DNA from: a virus
Taxonomy: Duplodnaviria > Heunggongvirae > Uroviricota > Caudoviricetes
DNA length: 7,881 nucleotides
IMG/VR virus record: IMGVR_UViG_2585427735_000015
Reading direction: 5' to 3' (one strand)
Part shown: in pieces, positions 2,759 to 7,881 of the stretch
How positions within the stretch are numbered: the stretch's first letter is position 1
Layout of the letters: the number at the start of each line of letters is the position of its first letter
Notes under the pieces: model-generated
Databases searched by the model: none
What the model was told of the DNA's origin: nothing
The model's input: only the letters and a program-made list of their open reading frames with translations
Made by a program: the position numbers and the translations under genes

Positions 2759-3550
2759 ATGAGCGAGAAATTAAAGATAGTCTATCGCCCATTACAAGAA
2801 TTGTCACCGTATGCGCACAACGCCAGGACGCACAGCCCTGAGCAGGTGGCACAACTGGTAGAAAGTATTAAGCAATTCGGCTGGACTAATCCGGTGCTGA
2901 TTGACGAAAAGGGCGAAATTATTGCGGGTCACGGTCGTGTTATGGCGGCTGAAATGCTCAAAATGGATTCTGTTCCGGTCATTGTTCTGTCTGGCCTGAC
3001 GGATGAGCAGAAAAAGGCGTACCGCCTGGCAGATAATCGCCTGCCGATGAATGCTGGCTGGGATGAAGATCTGTTGCGGATGGAGCTGTCGGACCTAATC
3101 AATGCTGATTTTGATGTCTCCCTGACAGGCTTCATCCCGACAGAAATTGATGAACTGTTGACGGATGTTTTGCCCGGTACAGGAAATGAGGAGGAGCCGT
3201 ATACGACGAAAATTGATACGCCTGTTTATGAGCCGTCGGGCGGTAAACCGGATATCAGTGAACTGTACGACGATACGAAAACTCAGGAGCTGATCAGCCG
3301 GATACGTTCGGCGTCCCTTGAGCCTGATATTGAGAAATTCCTCCTGTGTGCGGCAGAACGTCACACGGTGTTTAATTTCAGCAGAATTGCGGACTATTAC
3401 GCTCACGCCCCCTCTGAAATTCAGTGTTTTTTCGAGGAGTCGGCGCTGGTGATCATTGATTATCAGCAGGCTATTGAAAATGGATTTGTCCGGATGACGC
3501 AGCGCATGGTGGAGATCATGCATGGTGGTGAGGAGGAGGAATATGCGTGA
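2759..3550 (+). CDS. ynaK: ParB/Srx-like nuclease-domain protein (YnaK-like)
   Basis: 263-aa ORF. The N-terminal ~90 aa carry the ParB N-terminal domain signature (LSPYAHNARTHSPEQVAQLVESIKQFGWTNPVLID...IIAGHGRVMAA, an arginine motif analogous to ParB GERRxRA). The C-terminal ~170 aa are of unknown function and end in an acidic tail (GGEEEEYA). Gene order trkG then ParB-like matches K-12 Rac (trkG-ynaK-ydaY); the symbol is assigned by synteny and recall. Confidence 0.8.
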   Translation: MSEKLKIVYRPLQELSPYAHNARTHSPEQVAQLVESIKQFGWTNPVLIDEKGEIIAGHGRVMAAEMLKMDSVPVIVLSGLTDEQKKAYRLADNRLPMNAGWDEDLLRMELSDLINADFDVSLTGFIPTEIDELLTDVLPGTGNEEEPYTTKIDTPVYEPSGGKPDISELYDDTKTQELISRIRSASLEPDIEKFLLCAAERHTVFNFSRIADYYAHAPSEIQCFFEESALVIIDYQQAIENGFVRMTQRMVEIMHGGEEEEYA

Positions 3551-4475
3551 TGATTTTTGCGCCTTTATTCTGACTCACGGGCGACCGGACAAAGTTCTGA
3601 CTTACCGGACGTTGCGTCGTGCTGGCTATACCGGGAAAATTTTTATCGTTGTTGATGATGAAGATAAGACACGGAATCAGTACATGGCTGAATTTGGTGA
3701 ACAGGTGCTGGTGTTTTCCAAAGCCGATATCGCCAGTCGTTTTGACGAAGCCGATAATTTCTGTGACCGCCGCTCAATTTTTTACGCCCGTAATGCCTGT
3801 TTCGACCTGGCAAAACTGGTCGGGTGTAAATACTTCATTCAGCTCGATGATGATTATCACGAGTTCCAGTTTCGGGTGGATCGCAACTATGACCAGGCCT
3901 ATTTTCCGATAAGGAAACTGGATGCGATCCTTTCTGAAATGCTGGCGTACTACGAATCAATACCTGCTCTTTCCATCGCTATGTCGCAGGGCGGGGATTT
4001 TCTTGGTGACAATGGCGGCCATGCTTCGTGGGTGAAACGCAAGGCAATGAACAGCTTTATCTGTTCGGTTGATCGACCGTTCTCATTCATGGGGCGCATT
4101 AACGAGGATGTGAATACGTACACGAATCTCGGTCGCTGTGGTGAATTGTTTATGACGATCGGTGCTGTCCAGTTAGGGCAGAAACAGACGCAGAAAAACA
4201 GCGGCGGAATGACCGAGCTGTATCTGGATTCCGGAACCTACGTTAAAAGTTTTTACTCCGTCATGTATGCGCCGTCGTGCGTAAAAATCTCACTGATGGG
4301 TGCCAGCCATAAACGCATTCACCATCAGGTCACCTGGAACAACGCTGCAGTAAAAATCCTTCACGAAAAATACAGGAAGAAGACACCCTGCATATCAATG
4401 GGGGTGACAAATGATTCCGTATTCGAAAGTCGAGTCTCTGGCAGCGTGCCGGATGACTGCACAACAAATCGCTGA
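3543..4475 (+). CDS. ydaY: YdaY-like protein with GT-A (nucleotide-diphospho-sugar transferase)-like motifs; function unknown
   Basis: ATG at 3543 is preceded by GGAGGAGGA (a strong SD, 5-6 nt spacer) and overlaps the ynaK stop (ATGCGTGA). Contains CAFILTHGRPD...KIFIVVDDEDK and ARNACFDLAKLVGCKYFIQLDDDY, which resemble the first beta-strand/DD and ARNxG...DxD motifs of GT-A fold glycosyltransferases. The ORF track's ATG at 3522 lies inside the SD and is less likely. Confidence 0.7.
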   Translation: MRDDFCAFILTHGRPDKVLTYRTLRRAGYTGKIFIVVDDEDKTRNQYMAEFGEQVLVFSKADIASRFDEADNFCDRRSIFYARNACFDLAKLVGCKYFIQLDDDYHEFQFRVDRNYDQAYFPIRKLDAILSEMLAYYESIPALSIAMSQGGDFLGDNGGHASWVKRKAMNSFICSVDRPFSFMGRINEDVNTYTNLGRCGELFMTIGAVQLGQKQTQKNSGGMTELYLDSGTYVKSFYSVMYAPSCVKISLMGASHKRIHHQVTWNNAAVKILHEKYRKKTPCISMGVTNDSVFESRVSGSVPDDCTTNR

Positions 4476-4662
4476 CGTTCTGGATGTTGATCTGAACCGA
4501 CTGAAAGAAAATCGGGAAGCAATGACAGATTTTTATGCGGCCATCCGTAAGGGCAGAGCGAAAGGTGAAGCCGAGTTACGAGCGGCATTGTTTAAGCTTG
4601 CCAGAAAAGGGGATGCCTTTGCTCTGCGCGAACTACTCAGGGTGGATAAAAATCAGGACTAA
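4411..4662 (+). CDS. Small hypothetical protein, helical and charged, possible HTH DNA-binding protein
   Basis: 83-aa ORF preceded by GGGGTGA (4401-4407). Overlaps the 3' end of the ydaY-like gene by 65 nt in another frame; an internal ATG at 4453 (MTAQQIADVL...) would cut the overlap to 23 nt. The sequence TAQQIADVLDVDLNRL looks HTH-like. Ends 3 nt before the terS ATG. Confidence 0.45.
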   Translation: MIPYSKVESLAACRMTAQQIADVLDVDLNRLKENREAMTDFYAAIRKGRAKGEAELRAALFKLARKGDAFALRELLRVDKNQD

Positions 4663-4665
4663 CTG

Positions 4666-5760
4666 ATGAGCAGACCGGACTGGGGGGCGTTGCAGCAGGA
4701 GTATATTGCTGAATACACCCGCTCCGGTATATCTCCGGTGGCATGGTGTGAAGCAAGGGGACTGAATTACGCAACAGCCCGTCGTTACATCAAAAAAACT
4801 CCGAAAAATGCGCAGACAGAAATGTGCAAAACTGCGCAAAAAAGTGCGCAGAAAAAATCTGCGCAGACTGCACAAAAGCGGAACGAAAAATCTCAGGAAA
4901 AAAAGCCAGTATTCGATGCGGGCCTGAATGAGGGCGACGCGGAGGAATTTTCGTTCTGTCCCGATGAATTCGGCATTTCTGACCAGCAGGCTAAGTTTGC
5001 GATGCTTGTTGCTCAGGGTAAAAAGCCGACAGAGGCGTACCGACTAGCCGGTTATGAGGGGCAAGGTGCGACAGCTAACAGCAACGCCAGTCGTATGCTT
5101 AGAAATGCCAGGGTTTTTCGCGCTATCAGCTACTTCCGCAATCAGTACCAGAAACGCTATACCGCAGACCTGGATTTACTAGTGAGTCAGTTGATGGCTA
5201 TTGTCCTGGCCGACCCCAATCAGCTTGCACAATTTCGCCGTGTTAACTGCCGTTATTGCTGGGGCGAGAATCATCTCTACCAGTGGCGCGATATAGCAGA
5301 ATTCGACAAGGCAGCGGCGCAGGCTTCCAGAGATGGCAAACCCGAACCGGAATATGGAGGCCTCGGCTTTGTTGATAACGCCATACCCAATCCGGACTGC
5401 CCGAAGTGCTGCGGTGAGGGAACGGGACAGCTTTATATGGCTGATACCACTCTGCTTGATGGGGATGCGCGGCAATTATATGCAGGGGCAAAATTCGGAA
5501 AATTCGGCGTTGAGATCCTGCTGGAGGATAAGGCTGCCGCCCGGCGTGAATTGTTGCGTTTGTTTTCTGCTGGCGGGGCTTTATGTGCAGATAAACGGCT
5601 ACAGGAACTGGAAATTGAACGGCGCAGAATGGAAAACCAGAAGCTGCGCAAAGAGATCGAAACGGTGGAAGATAATGAACATCCCCAGCCTGTGGCGATC
5701 AATATTAATGTGGTTGATGCCAGAGTAAGGAGTGATGAAGATGATCTCTCCGACGCTTAA
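4666..5760 (+). CDS. Terminase small subunit (TerS), extended form
   Basis: 364-aa ORF with AGGA SD 7 nt upstream. N-terminal HTH-like region (ISPVAWCEARGLNYATARRYIKK) and a segment (GISDQQAKFAMLVAQGKKPTEAYRLAGYEG...ANSNASRMLRNARV) matching the small-terminase family signature as I recall it. Sits directly upstream of, and overlaps, the large-terminase gene. Carries an unusual Lys/Gln-rich repeat linker and a CxxC...CxxCC motif. Confidence 0.8.
   Translation: MSRPDWGALQQEYIAEYTRSGISPVAWCEARGLNYATARRYIKKTPKNAQTEMCKTAQKSAQKKSAQTAQKRNEKSQEKKPVFDAGLNEGDAEEFSFCPDEFGISDQQAKFAMLVAQGKKPTEAYRLAGYEGQGATANSNASRMLRNARVFRAISYFRNQYQKRYTADLDLLVSQLMAIVLADPNQLAQFRRVNCRYCWGENHLYQWRDIAEFDKAAAQASRDGKPEPEYGGLGFVDNAIPNPDCPKCCGEGTGQLYMADTTLLDGDARQLYAGAKFGKFGVEILLEDKAAARRELLRLFSAGGALCADKRLQELEIERRRMENQKLRKEIETVEDNEHPQPVAININVVDARVRSDEDDLSDA
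4808..4876 (+). repeat. Degenerate tandem TGCGCA(G/A)A repeats inside terS
   Basis: Six spaced copies of (A/C/G)TG(C/T)GCA(G/A)A at about 4808, 4823, 4832, 4844, 4859 and 4868, spaced 9-15 bp apart. They encode the AQK/SAQ-rich peptide NAQTEMCKTAQKSAQKKSAQTAQKR. Confidence 0.45.
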
Positions 5761-6496
5761 TGTGCCTCAGGCGCGATTTCTTTCAATGCCCCATAAATTT
5801 AAAGCCTATATTGCTGGTTTTGGCTCGGGCAAAACATGGGTTGGGTGTGGCGGCATATGCAAGGGGATTTGGGAGCATCCAGGTATAAATCAGGGATATT
5901 TTGCGCCAACGTATCCCCAAATTCGCGATATTTTTTACCCTACAGTGGAAGAAGTTGCTGCTGACTGGGGATTGAACGTAAAAATTAATGAGGGAAATAA
6001 AGAGGTTCACTTTTATTACGGACGCCAGTATCGGGGAACCACTATCTGCAGATCGATGGAGAAGCCACAAACGATCGTCGGTTTCAAAATTGGTAATGCG
6101 TTGGTGGATGAACTGGACATTTTGCCGAAGGAAAAAGCCAGAACGGCGTGGCGCAAGATAATTGCACGTATGCGTTATAAGATTGATGGACTTCGCAACG
6201 GTATTGACGTTACAACCACGCCGGAAGGATTCAAATTTGTCTACGAGCAGTTTGTTAAAGCCGTGCGTGAAAAAACAGAGCTGGCCTCACTGTATGGTCT
6301 GGTGCAGGCATCTACTTTCGATAATGAAAAGAACCTGCCAGCAGATTACATTCCTTCGCTTCTTGAATCATACCCTCCAGAGCTGATTAAAGCCTATCTT
6401 CGAGGACAGTTTACTAACCTGACAAGTGGTACTGTTTACCATCAGTTTGACCGGAAACTGAATAATTGCGAAGAAGTGGAGCAGCCAGGGGAGTAA
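5741..6496 (+). pseudogene. Terminase large subunit (TerL), N-terminal ATPase fragment truncated by IS4 insertion
   Basis: Start ATG 5741 is preceded by TAAGGAG (5726-5732, 8-nt spacer). Walker A (AGFGSGKT) and Walker B-like (ALVDELD) motifs typical of the TerL ATPase domain. The ORF stops after ~250 codons at a TAA that coincides with the first bases of the IS4 left end, whereas typical TerL is 450-650 aa and the nuclease domain is missing. Confidence 0.8.
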
Positions 6497-6542
6497 TGCC
6501 GATCAGTTAAGGATCAGTTGACCGATCCAGTGGCTGTGTAAG

Positions 6543-6577
6543 AATCCGGAAACGCTCACTTGTTTCCGGATTTTTTT
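6543..6577 (+). terminator. Perfect 11-bp stem-loop plus T7 tract in the IS4 left end, immediately upstream of the transposase ATG
   Basis: AATCCGGAAAC (6543-6553) and GTTTCCGGATT (6562-6572) are exact reverse complements with an 8-nt loop, followed by a T-run through 6577 and then ATG at 6578. No SD is apparent outside the stem. Confidence 0.55.
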
Positions 6578-7881
6578 ATGCACATTGGACAGGCTCTTGA
6601 TCTGGTATCCCGTTACGATTCTCTGCGTAACCCACTGACTTCTCTGGGGGATTACCTCGACCCCGAACTCATCTCTCGTTGCCTTGCCGAATCAGGTACT
6701 GTAACGCTACGCAAGCGCCGTCTTCCCCTCGAAATGATGGTCTGGTGTATTGTTGGCATGGCGCTTGAGCGTAAAGAACCTCTTCACCAGATTGTGAATC
6801 GCCTGGACATCATGTTGCCGGGCAATCGCCCCTTCGTTGCCCCCAGTGCCGTTATTCAGGCCCGCCAGCGCCTGGGAAGTGAGGCTGTCCGCCGCGTGTT
6901 CACGAAAACAGCGCAGCTCTGGCATAACGCCACGCCGCATCCGCACTGGTGCGGCCTGACCCTGCTGGCCATCGATGGTGTGTTCTGGCGCACACCGGAT
7001 ACACCAGAGAACGATGCAGCCTTCCCCCGCCAGACACATGCCGGGAACCCGGCGCTCTACCCGCAGGTCAAAATGGTCTGCCAGATGGAACTGACCAGCC
7101 ATCTGCTGACGGCTGCAGCCTTCGGCACGATGAAGAACAGCGAAAATGAGCTTGCTGAGCAACTTATAGAACAAACCGGCGATAACACTCTGACGTTAAT
7201 GGATAAAGGTTATTACTCACTGGGACTGTTAAATGCCTGGAGCCTGGCGGGAGAACACCGCCACTGGATGATACCTCTCAGAAAGGGAGCGCAATATGAA
7301 GAGATCAGAAAACTGGGTAAAGGCGATCATCTGGTGAAGCTGAAAACCAGCCCGCAGGCACGAAAAAAGTGGCCGGGACTGGGAAATGAAGTGACTGCCC
7401 GCCTGCTGACCGTGACGCGCAAAGGAAAAGTCTGCCATCTGCTGACGTCGATGACGGACGCCATGCGCTTCCCCGGAGGAGAAATGGGGGATCTGTACAG
7501 TCATCGCTGGGAAATCGAACTGGGATACAGGGAGATAAAACAGACGATGCAACGGAGCAGGCTGACGCTGAGAAGTAAAAAGCCGGAGCTTGTGGAGCAA
7601 GAGCTGTGGGGTGTCTTACTGGCTTATAATCTGGTGAGATATCAGATGATTAAAATGGCGGAACATCTGAAAGGTTACTGGCCGAATCAACTGAGTTTCT
7701 CAGAATCATGCGGAATGGTGATGAGAATGCTGATGACATTGCAGGGCGCTTCACCGGGACGTATACCGGAGCTGATGCGCGATCTTGCAAGTATGGGACA
7801 ACTTGTGAAATTACCGACAAGAAGGGAAAGGGCCTTCCCGAGAGTGGTAAAGGAGAGGCCCTGGAAATACCCCACAGCCCC
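6578..7881 (+). CDS. insG: IS4 transposase InsG (DDE family with YREK signature), 3'-partial at window edge
   Basis: Open frame from ATG 6578 to the window end (~434 codons, no stop), so absent from the supplied ORF track. Translation [36 protein letters not shown]... matches IS4 InsG as I recall it, with DDE-like residues in [19 protein letters not shown] and [13 protein letters not shown]. Confidence 0.9.

Follow-up and report, generated by a model that had tools for sequence, protein, structure and literature searches.

The pac site of bacteriophage P1 is a 161 bp segment inside pacA, the small-terminase gene, and contains seven TGATCA/G repeats carrying Dam sites (PMC10028697). Synonymous recoding of these hexamers lowered P1 packaging about 9-fold (PMC10028697). 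The locus considered here is an array of six hexamers with the consensus aaac-TGCGCA-Raa, located at positions 4809-4876 (+ strand) within the coding sequence of terS, the gene for the terminase small subunit (TerS). The array lies in a 7,881 nucleotide stretch of Caudoviricetes DNA (IMG/VR record IMGVR_UViG_2585427735_000015), referred to here as the window, which belongs to a Rac-type prophage of E. coli according to its open reading frame (ORF) listing and Pfam matches. The comparisons described below indicate that the array is probably a P1-type pac recognition element of a Rac-like, P22-type headful prophage, at which the small terminase would bind its own DNA.

Other packaging systems share some of these characteristics. 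Phage P22 likewise packages by the headful mechanism, has a P22-family head module and carries its pac inside the terS coding sequence (gene 3), where pac is one asymmetric 22-bp site (PMC9611059). The P22 TerS is without an extra N-terminal helix-turn-helix (HTH) domain, whereas the window has a palindromic hexamer array and a dedicated HTH; moreover, the window TerS is not gp3-like by Pfam and PHROG, so the array does not belong to the P22 type of pac. Several TerS contacts near the cut, and near or inside terS, are also found in SPP1, in which the pacL and pacR contacts flank the cut (PMC9611059). The protein folds and site sequences of SPP1 and of lambda are, however, unrelated to those of the window. 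In lambda, where TerS also touches several points near the cut and near its own gene, the R sites of cosB are bound by the winged helix of gpNu1 and are outside coding sequence. Specific recognition of pac by TerS has been poorly demonstrated in general, and the binding of pac in vitro was mostly weak and sequence-independent (2022 review, PMC9611059), while the pac sites of some well-studied headful phages, e.g. ES18, are still unknown (PMC11260489). Our literature search turned up neither a description of TGCGCA repeats acting as pac nor a mapped pac from Stx or Rac-like phages of this TerS family.

The hexamer array and its conservation as DNA

The terS gene occupies positions 4666-5760 on the + strand and encodes a protein of 364 residues, assigned from the ORF, Pfam, PHROG and the RefSeq name, the label of the identical RefSeq protein being 'terminase small subunit'. 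The protein matched PHROG 51 'terminase small subunit' over its full length (E 1.7e-75) and the Pfam family Terminase_2 (PF03592) at residues 122-321 (E 3.7e-8, 34.5 bits compared to a cut-off of 26.1).

A pattern scan for TGYRCARA gave six matches on the + strand of the array, starting at 4809, 4823, 4833, 4845, 4860 and 4869, which confirmed the preliminary description of this DNA, where six degenerate copies of a TGCGCA(G/A)A-type motif had been noted in the 5' part of terS. They span nucleotides 144-209 of the 1095-nt ORF, directly 3' of the segment that codes for the 44-residue HTH. The hexamer was exact TGCGCA in four of the six copies, all on the + strand: hexamer 1 at 4809-4814 (AAT GCG CAG, coding for N-A-Q; match TGCGCAGA), hexamer 3 at 4833-4838 (T-A-Q; TGCGCAAA), hexamer 4 at 4845-4850 (S-A-Q; TGCGCAGA) and hexamer 5 at 4860-4865 (S-A-Q; TGCGCAGA). 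Hexamer 2, TGTGCA at 4823-4828 (+ strand; ATG TGC AAA, M-C-K; TGTGCAAA), and hexamer 6, TGCACA at 4869-4874 (+ strand; T-A-Q; TGCACAAA), were each one transition off. Five of the copies are in the frame xxT GCG CAx (x-Ala-Gln) and the copy at 4823 is in a different frame (Met-Cys-Lys). The core of the hexamer is palindromic and therefore reads the same on both strands.

The clustering is not expected by chance. TGYRCARA occurred 10 times in the whole window, compared to 3.2 expected, and none of 200 shuffles reached 10. A cluster of four exact or six degenerate copies in 70 bp did not appear in any of 2000 first-order Markov simulations of the window, in which the maxima were three exact copies (once) and four degenerate copies (three times). 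The start-to-start spacings of the window array were 14, 10, 12, 15 and 9 bp, and the commonest spacings in 42 distinct arrays of relatives were 7, 9, 12 and 14 bp. The earlier suggestion of roughly helical-turn spacing was consequently only loosely right, in that the distances are 9-15 bp and the spacing histogram of the 42 arrays ruled out a 10.5-bp helical phasing.

The sample of relatives comprised 42 loci, each from a single genome of its species, and a further 80 loci from IMG/VR. Relatives are known from Klebsiella, Enterobacter, Citrobacter, Salmonella, Yersinia and Aeromonas. Almost all genes that encode this N-terminal domain had 3-7 exact TGCGCA copies at terS nucleotides ~130-230, and arrays of 4-7 exact copies were found at the same position, in all three reading frames, in some 40 species of Enterobacterales and in an Aeromonas phage. 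At 34 species-level loci of the TGCGCA type, nucleotides 100-200 of terS contained 4.5 hexamers per locus; the density in the flanks of these loci (3 kb on each side) was ~0.05 TGCGCA per 100 bp. The Aeromonas phage phiARM81mr had seven copies. Klebsiella phages with TerS proteins ~44% identical to that of the window had six exact TGCGCA in the same place, in the frames T-A-Q, L-R and C-A.

The frame in which the hexamers were translated was not fixed. The 206 hexamers of the 42 distinct arrays were read as xxT GCG CAx (Ala-Gln) in 162 cases, as xTG CGC Axx (Leu/Val/Met-Arg) in 35 and as TGC GCA (Cys-Ala) in 9. When synonymous codons were resampled in 34 genes with the protein sequence kept, 0.1-0.9 hexamers were expected and 3-6 were observed, an excess of about 10 times. 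Each of these genes, the window terS among them, gave P <= 0.001. The proven pac of P1 served as a positive control and gave 8 hexamers, a number reached by none of 2000 resamples, compared to 2.4 expected. In the E. coli allele L102 (protein P0036), a one-base insertion shifted the frame of the linker to KKCAERNAQNCAKKCAKK... and every hexamer was intact. Among 57 distinct E. coli alleles, the synonymous diversity fell to a minimum of 0.004 at codons 49-60, compared to 0.1-0.35 in the gene body, and the amino acid diversity at these codons was raised (0.12).

Four observations place the constraint on the DNA hexamer and not on the peptide, 1) the frames are mixed, 2) the hexamers exceed the synonymous expectation, 3) they are intact in the frameshifted allele and 4) synonymous diversity is lowest where they occur. 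As judged from these comparisons, the six hexamers are under selection as DNA, independent of frame and encoded peptide. The converse interpretation is that an (S/T)AQK-rich, low-complexity linker has been duplicated as a peptide feature and that the DNA repeats are a mere reflection of it. This would account for the x-Ala-Gln read from five of the six window copies, for the predicted disorder of the linker and for a copy number that differs (4 to 7) between close relatives. We nevertheless regard a peptide origin as most improbable, since hexamers coding for AQ, (L/V/M)R or CA are found, frameshifted alleles lose the peptide and retain the DNA motif, the hexamers are ~10 times more numerous than synonymous resampling allows, and amino acid diversity is raised precisely where synonymous diversity is lowest.

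In many E. coli alleles all six hexamers are exact, and this was therefore taken as the ancestral state of the subfamily. The copy number ranged from 4 to 7 by gain or loss of whole units, so that the repeat count does vary in the terS of relatives, a point raised in the preliminary description; absence of the repeats from functional relatives was not seen. The window allele is inexact at sites 2 and 6 because of single transitions from the ancestral state. Hexamer 2 differs by a C-to-T transition from the TGCGCA of most E. coli alleles (M/V/L-R-K) and hexamer 6 by a synonymous G-to-A transition from the TGCGCA seen in many relatives. The window allele was the most common of those sampled and was also found in a prophage whose terL, portal and capsid genes are intact, so the two weak sites need not reflect the decay of a dead prophage.

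It had been considered equally likely that the repeats are prone to slippage, or decaying, in a dead prophage where constraint is relaxed. The two degenerate hexamers and the IS4 insertion sequence in terL of the window copy, the whole-unit indels among alleles, the many truncated gene calls of 44-79 aa that result from A-runs in the linker and the IS1 at the array edge in strain CUWW10 are consistent with this idea. Nevertheless, Tandem Repeats Finder returned only weak rows, one of 12 bp (2.3 copies) and one of 36 bp (2.1 copies, 80% match). Because neither the length nor the sequence of the spacers is constant, the units do not form a tandem array, and the head-to-tail repetition of units with their spacers that characterizes a simple slippage repeat was not found. 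Furthermore, the hexamers are exact across genera in genes whose TerS proteins are only ~40% identical, and the same allele occurs beside an intact packaging module. Synonymous diversity is at its minimum at the hexamers, the reverse of what neutral evolution would give. Slippage in a dead prophage is thus largely rejected and, in our view, highly unlikely.

The terS of phage Rac-SA53 (L001 2412-3440) is annotated as a deletion fusion and is without the N-terminal HTH, the candidate reader of the hexamers; three of the five remaining hexamer positions are mutated (GTTCGCA, TGCGCT, TGCCCA), a single case that would fit relaxed constraint after loss of the reader. In E. coli CUWW10 (L004 2645-3360), the IS1 is located at the start of the array (window base ~4811) and truncates terS. 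A mosaic boundary at base 4810 in the match H59 was only apparent and proved to be an IS1 insertion.

Self-complementary hexamers could also pair in the mRNA and regulate the translation or stability of terS. The fold of 4790-4900 had an energy of -29.8 kcal/mol (z = -4.2) and none of 200 shuffles folded as well; terminator-like hairpins on the minus strand are a further indication of pairing. Folding of this kind is, however, the expected by-product of any set of palindromic hexamers. The spacing (7 to 16 nt, including the hairpin-incapable TGCGCAcTGCGCA) and the copy number vary among relatives, which leaves no common pairing geometry, and the hexamers are invariant instead of covarying. A function in the mRNA therefore has very little to commend it. 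The hairpins are two in number, with T-runs, on the minus strand at 4845-4876, and are probably incidental to the palindromic hexamers and the A-rich coding strand.

The N-terminal HTH domain and its association with the repeats

The AlphaFold2 model of TerS had a mean per-residue confidence (pLDDT) of 51.6 and was confident only for residues 1-44 and 99-160. The first of these segments is the N-terminal HTH domain (4666-4797, + strand), recognized by AlphaFold2 and hhalign and modelled as three short helices at residues 6-20, 24-30 and 35-38 (pLDDT 75-87); the putative recognition helix is ..NYATARRYIKK. The second (4960-5145, + strand; pLDDT 73-88, Pfam) is the helical part of the Terminase_2 domain, the conventional DNA-binding region of TerS. 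Residues 47-94, encoded by 4804-4947 (+ strand), had a pLDDT below 50, and the residues encoded by the array are predicted to form a disordered linker between the HTH and Terminase_2, in accord with the flexible linker that had been proposed.

A Foldseek comparison of the AlphaFold2 model with the PDB found nothing meaningful (best E 0.5) and the HTH profile had no meaningful match among PDB sequences. The N-terminal domain was not recognized by Pfam, which gave only sub-threshold hints of HTH_29 and weak matches to transposase-type HTHs. The domain is common to several PHROG TerS families. Searched against databases, the 45-residue HTH profile yielded no new fusion partners, the matches being confined to short gene calls (44-79 aa). 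These HTH-only calls are numerous in the databases (proteins P0121-P0240), which suggests that the A-runs of the linker often cause frameshifts, either real or the result of sequencing errors.

The HTH was the only element that always accompanied the array; the upstream genes varied among relatives. The gap between the HTH-coding segment and the hexamers was always 10-20 bp. The ParB-like gene and the 83-aa ORF upstream of terS in the window were each weighed as the hexamer-binding partner, but neither was retained, as both are missing from relatives that carry the same array.

The sequence of the putative recognition helix changed with that of the repeat. In class 1, a ..A(T/S)ARRY(I/L)K.. 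helix is paired with TGCGCA. In class 2, represented in Trabulsiella, Kluyvera, Serratia, Yersinia phage vB_YenM_29.18, Klebsiella phage RothD and Providencia phage PSTCR3, a ..(T/S)AKRYIK(I/V).. helix is paired with TGCGAAT, often as the palindrome TGCGAATTCGCA. In class 3, the ..TARTRIKM.. helix of the Stx phage Min27 is paired with four copies of (C/T)GATCATRA. The latter are located at nucleotides 142-183 of the Min27 terS (L131 1642-1683), encode IDHEIDHKTDHEIDHD and each contain a GATC Dam site, resembling the P1 hexamer in this respect. A tblastn search with the N-terminal 80 residues identified 108 Stx2a and 4 Stx1 records with this HTH. The Stx phages (Min27 / 933W group) and the TGCGAAT-type TerS of Yersinia, Providencia and Klebsiella have the same HTH family and the same array position in the linker DNA as the window, but differ in the hexamers (GATCAT in the former, TGCGAAT or its palindrome in the latter) and in the helix residues (ARTRIKM and AKRYIKI/V, respectively). 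No mapped pac for either group came up in our literature search. Resampling of the class 2 and class 3 arrays showed a clear excess of repeats in six of seven genes; the seventh, L038, has two hexamers (P = 0.06).

A set of 137 non-redundant modules, each consisting of the HTH and the downstream sequence, contained 126 R39-type helices (RRY, RRH, HRY) with TGCGCA, 7 KRY helices with TGCGAA(T) and 1 RTR helix with GATCAT. There were no discordant pairs, the remaining three modules being truncated pseudogenes with few repeats. Three types of C-terminal core were found downstream of the linker. One is the Cys-rich Terminase_2 core seen in the window, and the other two are of the PHROG-370 and PHROG-32222 types. 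Each bears both class 1 and class 2, so the core appears to have been exchanged repeatedly while reader and repeats were kept together.

The association was also approached from the motif. A gene-blind scan of IMG/VR for three TGCGCA separated by 1-10 bases, of which the first 120 stretches were taken, yielded 121 arrays, and 73 of these were directly preceded by this HTH on the correct strand (E < 1e-20). A few of the remainder were the same module cut by the end of a contig or a divergent HTH-terS (L136). Elsewhere in the scan, one contig has an iteron-like TGCGCA array directly after the gene for a winged-helix protein, outside terS (L164 10433-10530), and two related contigs have intergenic arrays of 5-8 TGCGCA (L174 1118-1260 and L249 1553-1700).

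We judge the chances to be even that the HTH and the array constitute a self-contained, portable packaging-specificity cassette of ~210 bp, swapped among at least three unrelated TerS cores, shared with P1 PacA and existing in at least four natural specificities (TGCGCA, TGCGAAT(TCGCA), GATCAT and TGATCA). With reader and site adjacent, the two would move between unrelated cores as one cassette.

The same observations could be explained if the hexamers were operators, by which the TerS HTH or another DNA-binding protein controls the expression of terS and terL and not packaging. That the hexamers are selected as DNA and covary with the HTH signifies a constraint like that on a binding site but is silent on the purpose of the binding, palindromic cores are typical of operators, and the sites are inside the transcribed 5' part of a late packaging operon. 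On the other hand, the only homologous arrangement that has been studied experimentally, PacA and the hexamers of P1, is a packaging site, and no promoter-like site was found in 4300-5300. In every case, moreover, the cassette is joined to a terminase small subunit, and this holds for three different cores, a better fit to the recruitment of a packaging enzyme. An operator function is accordingly considered unlikely.

Comparison with P1 pac and a proposed mechanism

A 16-member profile of the HTH aligned with residues 3-40 of P1 PacA over 38 columns (hhalign probability 92%, E 5.5e-7), and BLASTP aligned the window-family sequence ..LNYATARRYIKK with an N-terminal stretch of PacA. In the P1 record, the TGATCA/G hexamers are found in mixed frames at pacA nucleotides 194-233 (four) and 324-380 (four by pattern), and pac cleavage is annotated at nucleotides 276-285 with an IHF site beside it. 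P1 and the window are alike in that copies of a palindromic TG..CA hexamer are located in the 5' part of the small-terminase gene, 3' of a homologous HTH, in mixed frames, with an irregular spacing of 7-15 bp and in excess over the synonymous expectation.

The arrangement in Klebsiella-type relatives resembles that of P1 more closely, since these have two clusters (6 + 3) separated by ~150 bp, compared to 4 + 3/4 in P1. The second cluster consists of 2-4 TGCGCA at terS nucleotides 348-403, in the Terminase_2 domain (..VAQAIAQQQKASIVRT..), and also exceeds the synonymous expectation (loci L002 2869-2925, L003 2790-2834, L012, L013, L015, L017, L020, L030 and L035). No second hexamer cluster was found in the window or in its E. 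coli subfamily.

The window differs from P1 in several respects. The hexamer is TGCGCA and not TGATCA, GATC being present in the hexamer, as it is in P1, only in the Stx-phage class (GATCAT). The core is Terminase_2 with a Cys-rich insert and not the C-terminal region of PacA, and TerL and the head genes are P22-like and not P1-like. By analogy, the window element may be described as a variant of the P1 pac design, with a homologous reader, another hexamer, another terminase core and a P22-like head module.

Identification of the array as a pac element is favored because the hexamers are selected as DNA, always follow the HTH by 10-20 bp, covary with its helix and accompany an HTH homologous to that of PacA, which has hexamers in the same position. 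Together with the frame independence and the synonymous excess, these findings lend support at the level of sequence to the original proposal of a terminase recognition site that doubles as the code for a linker.

Several considerations weigh on the other side, 1) the support for a pac function of the TGCGCA members of the family is comparative throughout, 2) the covariation of helix and repeat is suggestive but not proof of co-adaptation, because an HTH and an array only 10-20 bp apart would be kept together by linkage alone and the pattern may partly reflect linkage or shared descent, 3) residue 39 alone cannot set the specificity, because P1 PacA has an ARRY helix like that of class 1 and reads TGATCA, 4) other arrays from the motif-first scan were unrelated to the HTH and consisted of tandem coding repeats, intergenic arrays or an iteron-like array by a winged-helix gene, 5) TGCGCA is without GATC, so control by Dam methylation in the manner of P1 is not possible in the window array, 6) the window subfamily has a single cluster, while P1 has two flanking the cut, 7) no match to the IHF consensus WATCARNNNNTTR was found near terS, a consensus scan being a weak test, and 8) with two degenerate hexamers and a terL broken by IS4, the copy in the window is inactive.

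If the array is a pac element, the N-terminal HTHs of a TerS oligomer would bind the TGCGCA copies within the DNA that codes for their own linker. Several HTHs of one TerS ring, on tethers of ~50 residues, could occupy the irregularly spaced hexamers and so mark the DNA. The Terminase_2 core and TerL would assemble next, and the first cut by TerL would be made nearby. The examples of P1 and of the two-cluster Klebsiella-type relatives would place this cut no more than a few hundred bp downstream. Headful packaging would then proceed towards terL and the head genes.

Prophage context and implications

Upstream of terS, the window contains lysis genes (68-1026), trkG (1146-2621), a gene with a ParB N-terminal domain (2759-3550), a gene of the TET-associated glycosyltransferase family (3522-4475) and, directly 5' of terS, the 83-aa ORF (4411-4662). 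The ParB-N gene is the full-length form of the K-12 ynaK remnant and overlaps the glycosyltransferase-family gene (PF20691, E 8.4e-35). This pair (2759-4475) lies immediately 5' of the packaging genes and possibly forms a DNA-modification module; there is no TET/JBP gene within the window. The 83-aa ORF had no Pfam or NCBIfam match, but matched positions 145-218 of the 319 in the profile of PHROG 309 'terminase small subunit' (E 8.3e-23), and may represent either a piece of terS or a small accessory protein.

Downstream, only the first 254 codons of terL are present (5732-6496, + strand; Terminase_6N, Pfam E 8.7e-34). The gene is split by an IS4-family insertion sequence at 6494-7881 (no strand assigned), which was identified by megablast, where annotated IS4 elements from thousands of E. 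coli records matched it at 99.6-99.8% identity. Since terL is broken, this copy of the prophage is packaging-defective and the array in this particular window is probably a relic. The E. coli strain ECCHD184, however, is 100% identical to the window up to base 6493, where its terL runs on intact and is followed by genes for a DUF4055 portal, a minor head protein and a P22-family major capsid protein. The element is therefore part of a P22-like headful packaging module. A terS of this type was present in 896 of 5426 complete E. coli genomes.

The family offers a test system for pac recognition, in which a small separate HTH, a discrete multi-copy hexamer target and natural specificity variants occur on otherwise identical cores. 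If the interpretation is correct, the cassette would provide a natural readout of sequence-specific pac recognition by small terminases and a simple route to reprogramming which DNA a headful phage packages, and could serve as a compact packaging signal in the design of phagemids or transducing particles. The interpretation also predicts the pac site of a very common prophage group. Stx-converting phages share the design but have another hexamer. The pac site and the direction of packaging would, in turn, tell which chromosomal genes adjacent to the prophage can be moved by lateral transduction.

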